Assembly: GCA_965226885.1 (NCBI GenBank)
Contig: CBDDEL010000012.1
Coordinates: 160,001 to 224,000, forward strand
DNA length: 64,000 bases
From: Opitutales bacterium
Lineage (GTDB): Bacteria > Verrucomicrobiota > Verrucomicrobiia > Opitutales > UBA2987
Direction of reading: 5' to 3'
Positions 39,001 through 51,000 of the stretch are shown one piece after another. Each line of letters opens with the position of its first letter. Position 1 is the first letter of the stretch. The position numbers are program-made.

Positions 39001-42000
39001 ATGGGGCCTGAATGAAGATGCGGCCACATTCATGGAAACAGACCTCGATGTCCTTAAAACAAGGTTTTACCGGGAAGGTAGGGATTGGGTGGAAATTCCG
39101 GCCATACTCAAGGCGGGGCAGGTAAGCTTTCATTCCGGTTTGATTTACCATGGCTCAACATCCAACACATCGGGAGAGCCAAGGCTTTCTCTCGTTTTAC
39201 ACTTTATGCCTCAGGGGACTGCTTACAATAAATACGGCGGATATAATCCCATGGGTGTTCAGATGGGACCGTATGTAAAACATGGAGACCTTTGCGATGA
39301 CCCATTTTTCCCAAAAACCTGGCCGGCGGCCCCAAAATCTTATTATTAAAAATATCCCTCTCTTATCCAATTATGATAAAAACAATTACTGCTTTATTAT
39401 TTGCCTTATTGGGGTTTTTCATTACTTCCTCAACCCTGATGGCAGGAGAGGAAAATTCCTGGAGCGAGAGTTACGTCACTATCGGTGAGCAAATCGTTGG
39501 CATTTTGGCCCAACCCGATGCGGAAGGCAAGGCGCCGGCCATATTGATGTGCCACGGGTTCGGGAGCCATAAAAACGAAGTCGGCGATATGTACAAAAGA
39601 TTGGCCGAAAAACTGGCCCTCAATGGCATCGCATCCCTGCGCATTGATTTCCCTGGTTGGGGCGAAAGCGGCGGAGAAATGGCCGATTCTTCAATCGAAA
39701 CACGAGTCAACGCCGCTGCTCAAGCTTATGAGTTTTTATCCGAACAGGCTTTTGTCGATGCGCAGCGAATGGGAATCCTGGGATTCAGCATGGGCGGGGC
39801 AACCGCCATTATCTCAGCCGGAGAAAACCCGGCCTGGTACAAGTCGATGGCCACCTGGTCTTCGGCGGGGGACCTGGGGAAGAACTTTCTGGATTCACTC
39901 GGACAGGAACGATTCGATGAGGTGATGGAAAAAGGAATCATAACCATCGACCTGGGTTGGCGGGAAGTAACGTTAAAAAAGGGATTTTTTGAAAAATTAA
40001 ATGAATACGATGTCCTGAAAAGCCTGGAAAAATATCCGGGCGCTTTCCTTTCCATCGCTGGGACGGAAGATTTCTCCGCCGCACATATCCCGAAATTCGC
40101 CTCGTCGGCCAAAGGGCGTCCTTCCGAAGGGGTTCTATTATCCGGCGCCGATCACATATTTGGAGTATTGGGTGAAGACCAAACCACGGCCGAAAATGTA
40201 ATGAGCCGAACTCTAAAGTGGTTCCGGCAAACCCTTTAGCCCGGAAATTTCATAAAAAAAGTATCGCTGATATGCTTATCTGCTGATATACAGCAGGATA
40301 GATTAAACATTAAAGCAATATCAGCGATGACAAAAAGTAAACAATTAGAACTACAGTTGACAAGGGTAAAAGGCCGCCGTGTGCGGGTTGATTTTAAGGG
40401 CGGTGAGGTTACTTCGGATGCCGGGCTGCTTTTGATCCGGGAAGTGGATCGGCGGTTGGGCTTGACCGAGCAAGCGGCCCGGCAATTAGTAGACAAACGG
40501 CAGAAGGGCAAAGTGCGCCATGAGATGCTGGCCATGATCCGGCAGCGCGTTTACGGGCTGGGGGCGGGCTATGAGGATTTGAACGACTTTGACACCCTGC
40601 GCCGCGATCCTTTGTTGCAAACGGTAACGGGGCGCACTGAAGCGTTGGCCAGCGCGCCGACTTTGTGTCGTTTTGAAAACGGGCAGGATCGGCGGGCAGC
40701 CTTTGCCCTGAACGAGTTGCTGGTCGAACAGTTCATCGGATCCTTTGCCGAGGAACCCGAAGAGATCATCCTGGACTTTGACGCCACCGACAATCCGGTG
40801 CACGGGCTCCAGGAGGGACGTTTTTTCCACGGTTATTATGATCATTACTGTTTTTTGCCGCTGTATGTTTTTTGCGGCGATCAGCTTCTGGTGGCCTACC
40901 TGCGGCCCAGCAAGATCGATGCGAGCAAGCATGCCGGGGCCATCCTCAAATTGCTGGTTAAACGGATTCGCCAAAGCTGGCCCCATACGCGGATTATTTG
41001 GCGTGCCGACAGCGGATTCTGCCGGGATCGGATTCTCTCGTGGTGCGAGCGCAACGAGGTTTATTTTATAGTGGGAACGGCCCGCCATGCACGCTTGCAG
41101 CAAGCGGCCCGGCAGTTGCAGGAGCAAGCCAAAGGCAGTTGCAGGAGCAAGCCAAACAATGGTTCGAGGGTAGCGGCAAAAAGCAACGGCTGTTTCAGCA
41201 CTTCGAGTATGGGGCAAAATCGTGGCGGCGCCAACGCCTTATCATCCACAAAGCCGAACACACCGCACAGGGGTCCAACCCGCGCTTCGTGGTGACGAAC
41301 CTGCAGGGCGATCCCCAAGAGCTTTACGACAAAGTATACTGTGGCCGCGGTGAGATGGAGAACCGGATCAAGGAACAGATGCAATTGTTCAGCGAACGCA
41401 CCAGCGCGCATAAATGGTGGGCCAACCAGTGGCGATTGCTCTTGTCGGGGCTGGCCTACACCTTGATGGAAGCCTTGCGCCGGTTCGCATTAAAAGGGAC
41501 GAAGTGGGCGCGGCTCCAATGCCACAGTCTACGGCTAAAATTAATCAAGATCGGAGCGGTCATCGTGCGCAACACCCGAACGATTCACTTTCATCTAAGT
41601 GAAAGTTATCCATGGGCCAGTCTTTTCAACCATGCGGCCCGCCGGTTGGTGCCAACCTAAAGGGCGCATTGGCGCTGCCCCCGGCGCTACCGAACCAATG
41701 GGGGAAAGGGGGAAGTGTCTCTACACCCTGAAAAACACCTCAAAATCAAGACGATCCGCCCAAAATACAAAGAAATCCATCTCCAATAGCAATAACGAGC
41801 CAAACTTTACCCTTCATGAAATATCCGGGTTAGTCAGTTTAGGAGCCAGAACGATGCCCAACGTCGAATTAGAGGAAGGAAAAGAGCTGCAGCTTGATTT
41901 TAACAAGCTGAACGATATCGCGGCCACCGGCAAAGACCTCATCCCGGCAGTTGTCCAGGATACCGCAACCGGGGAGGTATTGATGCTCGGTTATGTTAAC

Positions 42001-48000: not shown

Positions 48001-51000
48001 CCCGTCCAGGCGAACGGATCCACTGGTAATTATGAGAGAAGGAATTGGTATATCCGGTTGAATGGCGCCGGTCGTTCCGATGCGGTAAAAATTTTTAAGA
48101 CCTAGATCGGCCAGCTCTTCCAGGGCCAGGGACGTTCCCGGTCCCCCGATACCGGTCGAACAAACCAGGACCTTTTGGCCGCAAAGTGTCGCCAGGAACG
48201 AGGTGTATTCGCGATTGGTGGCAAGAAATTTTGCATTTTCATCGAGGTATTTTGCCGTTTTTTCAACCCTGGCGGGATCGCCCGGCAAAAGAACGTATTC
48301 AGCGCCCTTGATTAAATTTTTATTTAATTGAATATGGTATTTAATGGCTCTCCTTGGTTGGAATTAGTCGTCCCGGTTTGGGAAAGTCCGGCGCCGGGAC
48401 ATCGGAAAAATATTGTAGGATTACCTCGGATATCTTCGGGCTGTCCCCGCGTTTCCGGGTAATCGTCCCATTCAGGAAAGAGGAATAGAGGTCGGCCCCT
48501 TCGGCCAACAAATCCGCCACCGCAACTTTGTAAATCTGCTCTGGGTCCACAGGTTTTCCGCCGATTTCAAGATCGGTCACACGTTGACCTTTGGGGCGGT
48601 CCAGATCGTAATGGGCGATGAGTCCCGATGCCTGGATCATGCCTCGCTCAAGCGTCATCGATTGCTCGAGAACACCGAGTATATCCTTCCCGGACAGGTC
48701 CATCAAAACAACGCGATTAGGGAAGGGAAAGGCGTCGATGACGTTCCCGTAGGTTACTTCTCCTTCCGGCAAATCGGCCCGCAAACCGCCCGCATTGATA
48801 AACGCGACGTCGCTCTTGGCGGATTCACGCATGACATCGGCGGCGAAGCTGCCGAGCGAAGATTCCGTGTTGTAGCTGCGGATAAGCCTCTCTTGGAGAT
48901 GTCCCACGACGGCTTCGATTTCGGGATATTGTTTCCGGTAATGCTCGATTTTTCGCGCCACAATCGGGTGGGGGACCAGCTTTTCACTCTCTACCAGCAA
49001 CAATTTTCCATCATAGGACACTATTTTTTTGGCGGCCGTATCATATTTTAATTTGATATAACCCAACCGGGTGCCGTGACCGTAGGTTTGAACGACGAGA
49101 GTTCCTGTTTCGGGATGGACGATGGGTTCTTCCGTCCCGTGATCGGCATGTCCGCCGATGAAAATATCGATTCCGGGAACCGCTCCCACCAGTGCCAGGT
49201 CCGCCTCTACGCCGCGCTGGATTTCGGGGTGCGCCGAGGCATCGGTTTGCATGGGGGCGGTCATCCCCATGTGGGCCAGAACCACCACCAGGTCCACGTC
49301 CGGTTTGAGGTAGGCGACCGCCTCCCGGACAATGGGCGCCGGGTCGCGAAATTCCAGTTCTGCCACAAATGACGGCAGCACCACGCTGCGGGCGTCCTCA
49401 CCGATGATTCCAATCACACCGATACGGAATCTTTCTTTTTCCACGATGGCATAAGGTTGAGCGTAGGGAATATCGGTTCCTTTATAAAAAATGTTGGCCC
49501 CCAATACCGGAAAAGGAACGCGGTTTTTTTGTTTTCTCAGATTTTCCCAACCGTAGTCGTACTCGTGGTTGCCGATGGCCATGGCGTCGTAACGCATAGT
49601 GATCATCATTTCCATGAGCACTTCTCCTTGCGTGCGGTTGGAGAGCAGGCCGGTAAACATATCCCCGGCATCGAAAAGATAAACCAGGTCCTCACGGGTA
49701 CGAATTTCTTCCACCAGCGAGGCCAGCTCCGCCCCGCCTCCGAGGAAATTCACATCGTCCCGCCAGTAGGCGGGAATGGGATTAAAAGCGCTCTCGAAAT
49801 CGTTGGTGTGGAGGATGGTGATTTCACGAACAGAATCATTGAAGCCCGTTTCCGGCCAGGCGAATCCGTTTGCCAAAAATAATGCCGTAGAGGCAATTAA
49901 AAACTGGCGCCCCCGGAATAGGAAAGGGGCCCCAAAACGAATTGTCATTACCGGATGTTTAAAAAGTTTTCTCAAAACATTGATGCCCCGGAGAAAGCTC
50001 CGGGGCATCTCGGGGCATCTAATTGAAAATGAAAGAATCGTCTTAACTCAATCCTGGAATTAGAAGATATACTTTATGCCAAAAAGAATATTCCAGCGGG
50101 ATTGGCCTAAACGGTCCTCAACTATTGCCGTGTTGCCCACCCCGTTGAATGAGTAGAGATACTTGTTTGATTCCTCAATATAAGTTGCGCTGGCGATATT
50201 CTGTGAAGGGGTGCCGCCAAAACCAATCGGGAAGTCCCTTATCTGGCCATAGGAACTGTTGATCAGATTGCCGATATTAAGGAAATCTATGGTGAACTGC
50301 AACTTGCCCCATTTTGTAGCAATAGGGATATCCTGTGCAATCTTGAGGTCCCATTGATGAATCCAGGGAAGAGTGGCATCGTTTTTCTGATGCCGTTTGC
50401 CTGGTTCGAGGTCAGGGTGTTGGGCGACGAAGGCAAAAAAAGCATCCCGGTCAGCAGCCTCGGCGGCGGTAAGGACACCGCTGGGGTCAGCCGCCCAGGT
50501 CACGAAGGGATCGTCCGGTCCATTCGGTGTGTAAAAGAGGTCATTGGTCGAGCAGCAGTCATCGTTATTCGTGTTATTTTTGGCTACGTAACTATAGGGC
50601 TTGCCTGAGCGACCTTGATAAAAGAGAGAAATATTCGTCTTCCACTTACTATTTTCACCACCCCATTTGATTTGTTTGGAGATGGCCCAGATAAAATTAT
50701 GGCGAACCTCAAAAGGCGAAGTTCCCAATTCATCCGTGTTGGCATTGAAGATCGGAGTAGCCCGAAAATTTTCCACTGCAATAAAGCCTGTCCCGGAATT
50801 AACTTCATTGGAACTACCGTAGGAATAAGCAAAGGTGGAAAACCAGCCATCCTCCCTCATCGGACGAGTGAGGGTAAGGGTGTAATTGGTGGAATCACCC
50901 AGGCTTGTGTTTCTTAATTCCGTTACACTCCCAAAACCGCCAAAGCCTTCGGCCCCGGCACGGGCTGTCGACATGATAATGCGACCGTCCGGACCTGTCC

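Follow-up and report, generated by a model that had tools for sequence, protein, structure and literature searches.

Oxygenases in a nucleoside-scavenging island of an Opitutales bacterium: a plausible role in supplying unusual nucleosides to cytidine deaminase and uridine phosphorylase

The fungal thymidine salvage pathway relies on a pyrimidine deoxynucleoside 2'-hydroxylase, thymine-7-hydroxylase (T7H) and iso-orotate decarboxylase (IDCase), and no bacterial version of it was found in the literature searched. A second relevant activity belongs to the PhyH family (PF05721) of 2OG oxygenases. A 2025 study (PMC12709175) shows that members of this family remove the methyl group from free 2'-O-methyl (Nm) nucleosides, but not from nucleotides. 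The demethylases tested there came from bacteria (Acidisoma, Poribacteria, Sphingomonas), animals, plants, a fungus and a virus, while the same study reports human PHYH as inactive on Nm nucleosides.

The window, a stretch of 64,000 nucleotides from one contig of an Opitutales genome, was annotated with Pfam and NCBIfam and contains an island of about 33 kb (roughly 27.4-60.2 kb) that is very probably devoted to nucleoside import and breakdown (Table 1). On the pyrimidine side it encodes cytidine deaminase (Cdd) and two uridine-phosphorylase-type enzymes (Udp and Udp2); uptake is represented by three CNT transporters and a TonB-dependent receptor, and an UshA-like 5'-nucleotidase is encoded as well. 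The purine genes comprise an adenine deaminase, an adenosine deaminase, two PNP/MTAP-like phosphorylases and three NUP genes, and pseudouridine is covered by PsuG (432 bits) together with a pseudouridine-kinase-like PfkB. PhoD is also found among the island contents. The row of Cdd, a 2OG oxygenase (hereafter DIOX), a PhyH protein, two CNT transporters and Udp, which the preliminary description had placed here, was recovered with the same families and positions. This block is read as the pyrimidine arm of the island. Scans of the locus for promoters and terminators gave no signal above shuffles, so the operon structure is read from gene spacing alone.

Table 1. Features of the island, with positions counted along the window
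Feature	Position	Strand	Basis or remark
MTAP/PNP-like phosphorylase	27439-28383	-	Pfam, NCBIfam; purine arm
Adenine deaminase	29252-31255	-	Pfam, NCBIfam; purine arm
HupE/UreJ-like membrane protein	31147-32481	-	Pfam, NCBIfam; purine arm
NUP (PF06516) genes, three in tandem	32345-35562	-	Pfam, NCBIfam; purine arm
PNP-like phosphorylase, second copy	35761-36651	+	Pfam, NCBIfam; ends purine arm (27439-36651)
Adenosine deaminase-like protein, 497 aa	36713-38206	+	PF00962 5.9e-36; TIGR01430 under cut-off
PhyH1 (P0004), PhyH-family 2OG oxygenase, candidate 2'-O-methyl nucleoside demethylase	38453-39349	+	PF05721 1.6e-22
Alpha/beta hydrolase (FrsA-like)	39373-40239	+	81-82% identity to L001/L002
IS1380-family element	40240-41829	+	Limits from DNA comparison with congener L002
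HisI (PR-AMP cyclohydrolase) paralogue	41830-42282 (ORF 41599-42282)	+	PF01502 (PRA-CH) 8.7e-18
Cytidine deaminase Cdd, tetrameric type	42283-42726	+	NF004064 100.5 bits, cut-off 74
DIOX (P0001, g01599)	42875-43828	+	DIOX_N 5.8e-27; 2OG-FeII_Oxy 2.2e-18
PhyH2 (P0002, g01600), candidate 2'-O-methyl nucleoside demethylase	43907-44917	+	PF05721 2e-25
CNT1, CNT (NupC-type) nucleoside transporter	44963-46267	-	Family match
CNT (NupC-type) nucleoside transporter, second	46274-47575	-	Family match
Uridine phosphorylase Udp	47590-48288	-	NF008383 337 bits, cut-off 262
UshA-like 5'-nucleotidase	48341-50008	-	Family match
TonB-dependent receptor	50060-53242	-	Family match
PfkB kinase, pseudouridine-kinase-like	53466 to about 54440	-	Pfam, NCBIfam; pseudouridine catabolism pair
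PsuG-type glycosidase	54486-55406	-	Pfam, NCBIfam; pseudouridine catabolism pair
Udp2, second uridine-phosphorylase-like gene	55952-56788	-	TIGR01718 263 bits, below cut-off 280
PhyH3	56761-57918	+	53% identity to PhyH2
CNT3, third nucleoside transporter	57919-59220	-	Family match
PhyH4	59309-60190	-	Ectoine hydroxylase and PHYH come closest among solved structures

The FrsA-like alpha/beta hydrolase keeps its place as the opening gene of the operon in congeners. Here an IS1380-family element, with its transposase broken into two overlapping ORFs (40327-41295 and 40998-41660), has inserted between the stop codon of this gene and the HisI-like gene. Congener homology of the HisI-like ORF begins only at 41830, the part 5' of this position being IS-derived, and its stop codon directly adjoins the Cdd start codon. 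Another, stand-alone HisI is encoded on contig C10. The gene row previously reported for a congener is indeed present in L002, where the alpha/beta hydrolase, the HisI-like gene and Cdd accompany DIOX (90%), PhyH (85%) and an Amidohydro_2 gene.

With regard to the PhyH oxygenases, the window carries four of the 19 PF05721 matches in the whole genome. PhyH2 and CNT1 are convergent and 45 bp apart, PhyH3 and CNT3 adjoin tail to tail in a Udp2-PhyH3-CNT3 arrangement that is repeated in congener locus L067, and 88 bp before the start of CNT3, in the same orientation, comes PhyH4. PhyH1 is flanked by the adenosine deaminase and the alpha/beta hydrolase, and the pseudouridine genes neighbour the PhyH/CNT genes. 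From family and context, we lean towards the PhyH proteins being 2'-O-methyl nucleoside demethylases. PHYHD1, the sole validated demethylase with a structure, is a remote relative of PhyH1 (E = 3.2e-6) and PhyH2 (1.7e-5), and these proteins match PHYH, SnoN and EvdO2 better in the PDB search (SnoN at 4.9e-13 for PhyH1, PHYH at 4.1e-10 for PhyH2). The PhyH2 subfamily is rare, with two loci in genome_contigs that both come from one congener; nucleoside genes were found at none of its 22 metagenome loci, most of which are short. Among 301 Verrucomicrobiota genomes, only 3 encode a PhyH4-like protein (E<=1e-30).

DIOX, to which no NCBIfam family matched, has the HxD...H triad H194/D196/H251. Its PDB matches agree with the figures given before: 3OOX at 2.3e-65, the ethylene-forming-enzyme (EFE)-like 9OVH at 2.1e-38 and T7H (5C3P) at 2e-37; further relatives are thebaine 6-O-demethylase (1.6e-19) and another O-demethylase (5e-18). 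In the HMMER alignment the triad and T7H residues Arg190, Arg286, Ser288 and Phe292 are retained as claimed, but Tyr194, also said to be kept, pairs with Ser178, a Tyr lying one position before. The T7H contacts Asn87, Glu122, Tyr217 and Asn294 are replaced by Met, Gln, Ile and Gln, the last two replacements having been recognised earlier. The four retained residues outside the triad are present in 3OOX as well, and three of them in 9OVH; what DIOX retains of T7H is therefore only what is family-wide.

The position of DIOX after Cdd is retained in all three congeners possessing the locus, and here as in L001 and L002 the two genes share one same-strand row, which includes PhyH2 here and PhyH in L002. 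Moreover, in the Chitinophagaceae locus L126 a DIOX with 54% identity is tightly packed with Cdd and CNT (5998-8643), and a Udp-like PNP_UDP_1 gene lies 0.4-1.6 kb 3' of the DIOX orthologue at 36 of 80 Bacteroidota loci (6 of 27 in a first sample), such linked genes being seen in Flavobacteriaceae. Since DIOX orthologues recur beside pyrimidine-nucleoside genes, a pyrimidine nucleoside or base is the probable substrate. No nucleoside gene was found near the orthologue at 43 of the 80 and 21 of the 27 non-Opitutales loci, and Cdd adjoins it in just 1 of 107. Furthermore, the pocket of the Opitutales protein differs from that of Bacteroidota orthologues (M78 vs Q, Y177-S178 vs HY or YY, C198 vs N, Q273 vs H), so context elsewhere may not transfer.

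The Amidohydro_2 protein was the proposed third member of the bacterial route. Its orthologue in this genome (84% identical to the congener protein) was located, as described, on another contig (C11:287036-288385), adjoining two IS630-type transposase genes and immediately 3' of a TonB-dependent receptor. It is a variable cassette: it is missing at the present locus, and its presence in congeners is independent of PhyH, which L001 lacks although it carries the Amidohydro_2 gene. Searching the PDB with a profile led to 4I6V and uronate isomerases, and no chain of the IDCase or ACMSD type came up at E<=1, in line with the unlikeness to IDCase already pointed out. The structural model (pLDDT 92) has TM scores of 0.74-0.76 to uronate isomerases vs 0.37 to IDCase, which is the fold class right behind them in the Foldseek list. 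At 14 loci of other phyla its relatives stand by sulfatase, rhamnosidase, GH31, sugar isomerase or oxidoreductase genes, with no Cdd, CNT or DIOX nearby. Identity as IDCase was thus rejected with high confidence, and the protein is predicted to be uronate-isomerase-like. The four Amidohydro_2-family proteins of this genome that were compared with the PDB, out of 13 family matches, gave no IDCase match.

The full three-enzyme reading, in which PhyH is the deoxynucleoside 2'-hydroxylase, DIOX the T7H and Amidohydro_2 the IDCase, is therefore very unlikely. It can draw on T7H being among the best characterised DIOX relatives, on the retained residues, on a superfamily common to Amidohydro_2 and IDCase, and on thymine that could come from Udp and from two PYNP_C-type phosphorylases elsewhere in the genome; against it stand the Amidohydro_2 results, the replaced contacts, the much nearer 3OOX and a published PhyH activity that fits better (PMC12709175). 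The oxygenases do lie within a nucleoside-catabolic operon, so the idea is partly supported, although its specific route is not. A narrower version keeps DIOX alone as T7H-like, with thymine or 5-methyluridine oxidised at the 5-methyl group and decarboxylation left to some unrecognised enzyme. Cdd and Udp would produce these substrates from thymidine or from m5C and m5U, which are common RNA modifications. The likeness to T7H and a gene that adjoins Cdd and faces Udp speak for this version, but the T7H substrate pocket is not kept, no decarboxylase candidate was found, and hxnY-type and EFE-type enzymes give similar scores. Additionally, 5-methyl groups are not known to block E. coli Cdd or Udp, which puts the need for such oxidation in question, and we regard this version as unlikely too.

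Alternatively, DIOX might demethylate an N- or O-methyl pyrimidine nucleoside (m4C, m3C, m3U) with loss of formaldehyde, or 2'-hydroxylate deoxycytidine or deoxyuridine, leaving the rest to Cdd and Udp. This tentative proposal is favoured by the close Cdd linkage in two unrelated lineages, the Udp-like linkage in Flavobacteriaceae and the DIOX_N-family O-demethylases among the PDB relatives. A one-step reaction needs no partner enzyme and so fits a DIOX that has no Amidohydro_2 gene beside it here and no PhyH gene in L001 and L126. However, no enzyme of the DIOX family with such activity was found in the literature searched, and thymidine-phosphorylase-like and DeoC-like genes in the genome would make a 2'-hydroxylase dispensable. 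It is somewhat more doubtful that DIOX is unrelated to nucleosides and that chance brought into the island what is a housekeeping oxygenase widespread in Bacteroidota and other groups. The orthologue group is huge (7,994 of 8,000 candidates scored at E<=1e-30), most of its loci lack nucleoside genes, IS elements have heavily rearranged this genome, and occurrence in 2 of 301 Verrucomicrobiota genomes makes acquisition by transfer probable. Its constant place in the congeners, the independent origin of the DIOX-Cdd-CNT operon in L126 and the Bacteroidota loci with Udp-like neighbours argue against chance.

Given oxygenases within a nucleoside-catabolic operon and two further lineages in which DIOX orthologues neighbour Cdd, CNT or Udp-like genes, it is plausible that the two oxygenases supply Cdd and Udp with unusual nucleosides. 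In the proposed scheme, which we hold with moderate confidence, the TonB-dependent receptor and the periplasmic 5'-nucleotidase would deliver nucleosides for import by the three CNT transporters; Cdd, the Udp-type and PNP-like phosphorylases and the two deaminases would dismantle canonical ones, and PsuK and PsuG would process pseudouridine. Accessory enzymes would turn modified nucleosides into forms usable by this core. For the four PhyH oxygenases the most likely reaction is hydroxylation at the 2'-O-methyl group of free Nm nucleosides, yielding formaldehyde and the plain ribonucleoside, as shown for FJS and PHYHD1 (PMC12709175), and DIOX would be a second accessory oxygenase, for which base demethylation, 5-methyl oxidation and 2'-hydroxylation are candidate reactions. 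Demethylation of modified RNA nucleosides is a more likely function of the extra oxygenases than a fungal-style route from thymidine to uracil.

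The gene set listed in the preliminary description is present in the flagged stretch according to ORF and family annotation, and the annotation of the remainder of the window by Pfam and NCBIfam scans shows that this locus is one arm of a far larger island. Upstream, genes for an MTAP/PNP-like phosphorylase, an adenine deaminase and a HupE/UreJ-like protein accompany a tandem NUP (PF06516) trio; next along are another PNP-like gene, one for an adenosine deaminase-like protein, the first of the window's PhyH oxygenases (PhyH1) and an a/b hydrolase. Downstream, a PfkB gene resembling pseudouridine kinases and PsuG (432 bits) are accompanied by a peroxiredoxin and another uridine phosphorylase-like gene (Udp2, 263 bits), beyond which PhyH3, a third CNT nucleoside transporter (CNT3) and PhyH4 are followed by RidA and a PhoD-like phosphatase. 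The NUP genes, which adjoin the HupE/UreJ-like membrane protein and the adenine deaminase, encode paralogues of ~353 aa each that match the 'purine nucleoside permease' family at 360-376 bits. The PfkB gene is an open frame with congener homology across 308 residues; no ATG, GTG or TTG start is found upstream of its 237-aa ORF, and the gene may have an unusual start codon or a damaged 5' end. A promoter and terminator scan gave counts equal to those of shuffled sequences.

Features of the nucleoside island and insertion elements in the window
Feature	Position	Strand	Remark
IS1380 element, second copy	15126-16698		intact transposase 15301-16671, 456 aa
NUP trio	32345-35562	-	three paralogues
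PhyH1, PhyH oxygenase	38453-39349
IS1380 element	40240-41829		1,590 bp; transposase split, two ORFs
HisI-like (PRA-CH) paralogue	41599-42282	+	congener homology from 41830 (41830-42282)
Cytidine deaminase (Cdd)	42283-42726	+	start codon abuts the HisI-like stop
DIOX (P0001), DIOX_N/2OG-FeII_Oxy oxygenase	42875-43828	+
PhyH2 (P0002), PhyH oxygenase	43907-44917	+
CNT transporters, two	44963-46267, 46274-47575	-
Uridine phosphorylase (Udp)	47590-48288	-
UshA-like 5'-nucleotidase	48341-50008	-
TonB-dependent receptor	50060-53242	-
PfkB, pseudouridine-kinase-like	53466-54440	-	start codon unusual or 5' end damaged (possible)
PhyH3, PhyH oxygenase	56761-57918
CNT3, nucleoside transporter	57919-59220
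PhyH4, PhyH oxygenase	59309-60190

The nearest public loci belong to two Opitutales metagenome-assembled genomes (L001 and L002), in which DIOX is 87% and 90% identical, respectively, to P0001, and the rearrangements were read from a DNA comparison of the window with both. The junction between the hydrolase stop codon and the HisI-like gene is precisely where an IS1380 element has inserted. The Amidohydro_2 gene of L002 (~1.38 kb, between PhyH2 and CNT1) is cleanly missing from the window, and L001 has Amidohydro_2 and lacks PhyH2, so that the row DIOX-PhyH-Amidohydro_2 exists in L002 only. The Udp2-PhyH3-CNT3 arrangement, with PsuG and PsuK, is found again in a further congener locus (L067). 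There, a Na+/dicarboxylate (DASS-type) transporter (L067:10487-11989) stands beside PhyH3 and CNT3, which is not seen at the equivalent place in the window; this transporter might serve the oxygenases by supplying 2-oxoglutarate or removing succinate. The operon head in L001 (6726-8030) and L002 (3239-4543) is an AraC-type regulator fused to a GNAT acetyltransferase domain, which was not found in the studied genome (tblastn, 1e-10), its position in the window being taken by the adenosine deaminase-like gene and PhyH1. One IS1380-family element is hugely expanded in this genome, with 230 near-full-length copies (at least 1,500 bp), of which 23 are at least 97% identical and 207 are 88-92% identical; altogether, 451 BLAST segments amount to ~518 kb, or ~9.5% of the 5.48-Mb genome.

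Of the genome's 19 matches to PF05721 (the PhyH family), four fall in the window (scores of 81-122 bits, with the H-Q-D motif in all four). Three of these genes touch a CNT gene: PhyH2 and CNT1 stand tail to tail with 45 bp between them, CNT3 is abutted by PhyH3, and PhyH4, on the strand of CNT3, lies 88 bp upstream of that gene. PhyH3 is 53% and PhyH1 22% identical to PhyH2. The first PhyH-type enzyme for 2'-O-methyl nucleosides was reported in December 2025 from a functional screen (Stonkus et al., NAR, PMC12709175). In that study, a bacterial PF05721 enzyme, FJS, emerged from growth selection of a pyrimidine auxotroph on 2'-O-methylcytidine, and the same activity is present in human, mouse, fish, fly, fungal, plant, viral and further bacterial members. 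The paper further states that the demethylases take free nucleosides of all four bases and act neither on nucleotides nor on 3'-O-methyl nucleosides, that human PHYH is inactive, that FJS is close to ectoine hydroxylases, and that the base-stacking aromatic residue is F161 in human PHYHD1 and Tyr in the bacterial enzymes (PMC12709175).

In the island, PhyH2 and PhyH3 have Tyr, PhyH4 has Phe and PhyH1 has His as the third residue after the Asp ligand, a position equated with this base-stacking one by motif only. Presumably, PHYH also has Tyr at that position. All four proteins share the Pfam family of FJS and PHYHD1, and PhyH2 and PhyH3 carry WHQD[AS]GY around the iron ligands, as does the Poribacteria enzyme tested in that study (supplement of PMC12709175); PhyH2 is ~50 residues longer than FJS. 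PHYHD1 is a distant match (E 1.7e-5 for PhyH2, 3.2e-6 for PhyH1 and 2.7e-9 for PhyH4), with PHYH, SnoN and EctD scoring better, and the best PDB match of PhyH4 is ectoine hydroxylase. The free-nucleoside substrates described for FJS and PHYHD1 fit PhyH genes that come after a 5'-nucleotidase and beside nucleoside transporters. Demethylase activity would fit the island because the 5'-nucleotidase and CNT proteins supply nucleosides in free form, and Cdd and Udp depend on unmodified ribonucleosides. By family and context, the PhyH proteins are probably 2'-O-methyl nucleoside demethylases. An AF2 model of PhyH2 from a 4-sequence alignment reached a pLDDT of 39.6 and was unusable. A genome scan for PhyH2 relatives returned the congener copy and its paralogue only, and a metagenome scan with a PhyH2/PhyH3 alignment returned 22 loci, only three of them at 46-47% identity; Cdd, CNT, Udp or other island genes were detected by tblastn at none of the 22, of which 14 were shorter than 3.1 kb. 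PhyH4 was found in three and DIOX (E≤1e-40) in two of 301 Verrucomicrobiota genomes, the studied genome being one of the latter, and both are therefore too rare for a co-occurrence test.

A different reading of the locus, in which PhyH, DIOX and the Amidohydro_2 protein form a bacterial version of the fungal thymidine-to-uracil salvage pathway, had been proposed in the preliminary description, with Amidohydro_2 as the decarboxylase. The Amidohydro_2 protein shares with decarboxylases of the iso-orotate decarboxylase (IDCase) and ACMSD type the TIM barrel of the amidohydrolase superfamily and an N-terminal HxH motif. Unlike IDCase, it is a 450-aa protein with long helical inserts, as in uronate isomerase. 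Neither a single-sequence PDB search nor a 17-sequence profile returned an IDCase, ACMSD or LigW chain at E≤1; the best profile matches were 4I6V (1.7e-14), 2QPX and, over positions 6-416 and thus nearly full length, the uronate isomerase 1J5S (5.9e-4). A Foldseek search with its AlphaFold model (pLDDT 92.1) gave TM values of 0.74-0.80 over ~460-490 columns to 4I6V and uronate isomerases, among them 0.76 for 4I6V and 0.74-0.76 for uronate isomerases, with the Cordyceps IDCase (4HK5) at rank 32 and a TM of 0.37. The D-T-H-E-H motif and H294, H332 and D388 are invariant in 17 of 17 sequences. By the full-length fold of this predicted model and the conserved metal motif, the protein is a uronate isomerase-like amidohydrolase (4I6V, 1J5S, 2Q01).

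Its genomic surroundings were also compared. The ortholog in the studied genome (C11:287036-288385) is 84% identical to the congener copy (L002:8858-10210) and follows immediately on a TonB-dependent receptor gene, with two IS630-type transposase genes alongside. Displacement from the cluster by IS activity was considered and dropped, as the receptor-Amidohydro_2 pair is also present in a fourth Opitutales genome (L036:8920-10350) and the arrangement is therefore not peculiar to the studied genome. Amidohydro_2 adjoins DIOX in L001 and L002 only; within Opitutales, the family is seen either in the nucleoside cluster or right after a TonB-dependent receptor. At 14 loci of other phyla, relatives with 33-54% identity have nearby sulfatases, rhamnosidase, GH31, xylose-isomerase-like barrels, GFO/IDH/MocA, 3-keto-disaccharide hydrolase and aldolase genes; a PhyH gene is nearby at one of the 14, and Cdd, CNT, PNP_UDP_1 or DIOX_N at none (E≤1e-10). 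The genome has 13 PF04909 matches, of which four were compared with the PDB: one (C14:57579-58688) is of LigW/ACMSD type and none of the four matches IDCase. NCBIfam has no family for the Amidohydro_2 protein; of the genome's other Amidohydro_2-family ORFs, eight likewise receive no name, and one matches an L-fucono-1,5-lactonase model below its cut-off. From the lack of a sequence or profile match, the TM of 0.37, the lack of a constant linkage to DIOX, the fold and the sugar-type neighbours elsewhere, we conclude that this protein is not an IDCase counterpart.

The resemblance of DIOX to fungal thymine-7-hydroxylase (T7H, 5C3P) was another support of the salvage proposal. The PDB values reported for it hold (3OOX 2.3e-65, the EFE-like enzyme 9OVH 2.1e-38 and T7H 2e-37). 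For comparison, T7H residues were taken from the available passages of PMC4787775 and mapped by hand onto the HMMER alignment, chain numbering being native +2. DIOX shares with T7H the DIOX_N and 2OG-FeII_Oxy architecture, the HxD...H triad (H194/D196/H251), the 2OG ligands Arg286 and Ser288 (R265 and S267), Arg190 and Phe292 (F271). The thymine-binding residues of T7H, as given in those passages, are a base sandwich of Phe292 and Tyr217 (Phe or Trp allowed) and polar contacts from Asn87, Glu122 and Asn294. Of these, Phe292 alone is kept, since Tyr217 is replaced by Ile197, Asn87 by Met78, Glu122 by Gln101 and Asn294 by Gln273. The residue assignments made previously agree with this alignment except for Tyr194, which had been counted as kept and aligns with Ser178, a Tyr standing one position earlier. 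Furthermore, the residues that DIOX keeps are also found in 3OOX, and Arg286, Ser288 and Phe292 also in 9OVH, so that they mark the family and not the substrate and are not diagnostic for T7H. The closest solved relative of DIOX, far nearer than T7H, is 3OOX (residues 24-312), a structural-genomics entry named 'putative 2OG-Fe(II) oxygenase family protein'. A literature search found no paper on its function: of the listed matches to the term 3OOX, 14 are materials science and the other is a review of ethylene formation (PMC10467617), which was not read. NCBIfam has no family for DIOX, nor for PsuG, and a search of the ESM Atlas gave generic 'isopenicillin N synthase family' clusters only.

The closest DIOX relatives outside the genus are from Bacteroidota (55-58% identity) and bear only the name 'isopenicillin N synthase family', and an alignment-based genome scan for diverse relatives returned Bacteroidota alone (51-58%). 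Given this and its rarity in its own phylum, an origin of DIOX by transfer is probable. A first sample covered 27 non-Opitutales loci; Cdd and CNT were absent from all of them within 10 kb, and a Udp-like PNP_UDP_1 gene lay downstream in six; in a second sample, from Bacteroidota, a Udp-like gene was found 0.4-1.6 kb downstream on the same strand in 36 of 80 loci. In a Chitinophagaceae locus (L126:5998-8643), DIOX, Cdd and a CNT transporter follow one another head to tail in a tight row. Members of the DIOX orthologue group thus stand with pyrimidine-nucleoside genes in three lineages, though this holds for a minority of genomes. Several pocket positions differ between the Opitutales DIOX and the Bacteroidota orthologues, that of L126 included, and 3OOX groups with the latter, having the HY and H positions as theirs; the substrate of the Opitutales DIOX, which has changed pocket residues, may have shifted. 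In two loci (L091 and L118), a conserved row runs from DIOX through SUI1/YciH, an unannotated ~315-aa protein and a Udp-like PNP_UDP_1 protein of 288-290 aa to a Ca3427-like binding protein, and a third (L006) matches it apart from the missing 315-aa gene; in 34 other Flavobacteriaceae-type loci, the check covered the downstream Udp-like gene, which they have. L118 also carries, three genes upstream, a gene for a tRNA (uracil-5)-methyltransferase. The studied genome has a second DIOX_N oxygenase (C10:294634-295587, minus strand), 35% identical to P0001, and a 38% relative is present in one other genome of the order (G075:C13:54242-55135).

A bacterial thymidine-to-uracil pathway, which would be the larger surprise of the two readings, is not carried by this evidence, and the salvage reading is supported in part only: the gene observation itself stands, the Amidohydro_2 part has fallen, the DIOX part is weakly supported, and the PhyH step is better explained by 2'-O-methyl nucleoside demethylation as published in PMC12709175. 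Additionally, two PYNP_C-type phosphorylases and a DeoC-like gene are present elsewhere in the genome, so that ordinary thymidine cleavage can be presumed and a 2'-hydroxylase is not needed for thymidine. A literature search found no bacterial T7H/IDCase route, no cloned pyrimidine deoxynucleoside 2'-hydroxylase and no DIOX_N enzyme that acts on nucleosides. The best account of the locus is a nucleoside and modified-nucleoside scavenging island, in which the PhyH proteins would probably demethylate 2'-O-methyl nucleosides and DIOX would serve as an accessory oxygenase on a pyrimidine nucleoside or base. The HisI paralogue, conserved in L001 and L002, has the same Cys/His motifs as the housekeeping HisI (C10:345940-346179). 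A PR-AMP cyclohydrolase in a nucleoside operon suggests that the ring of an N1-substituted adenine (1-methyladenosine, for instance) is opened, a role that we purely infer.

A bolder and tentative extension, to which we would give perhaps three chances in ten, is that the DIOX group of Opitutales, Bacteroidota and 3OOX is an undescribed oxygenase on free pyrimidine nucleosides or bases, within a multi-enzyme kit that erases RNA modifications. Its reaction could then be a T7H-like 5-methyl oxidation, a base demethylation or a 2'-hydroxylation, and the kit would comprise DIOX, four PhyH demethylases, PsuK/PsuG and the HisI paralogue, possibly opening m1A, which together would make scavenged nucleosides usable. 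RNA degradation, where it occurs, releases free modified nucleosides, and, to our knowledge, their use by bacteria is largely unknown. As the passages available of PMC12709175 report no genomic context, the island arrangement is new information. Four PhyH oxygenases by nucleoside transporters, uridine phosphorylases and pseudouridine genes offer a physiological setting for the published activity in an environmental bacterium, and the island points to two candidate partners, the DIOX_N oxygenase, whose orthologues are common in Bacteroidota, and the HisI paralogue at the Cdd start. The island is not a demonstrated new pathway; its value lies in giving the newly described demethylases a natural context. 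With bacterial nucleoside catabolic clusters of the cdd-udp-nupC-deo type and with psuK/psuG it shares Cdd, Udp, CNT/NupC, the 5'-nucleotidase, PsuG and a PsuK-like kinase. Unlike these known clusters, it adds four PhyH oxygenases, a DIOX_N oxygenase, a HisI paralogue, an a/b hydrolase, three NUP proteins and a TonB-dependent receptor.
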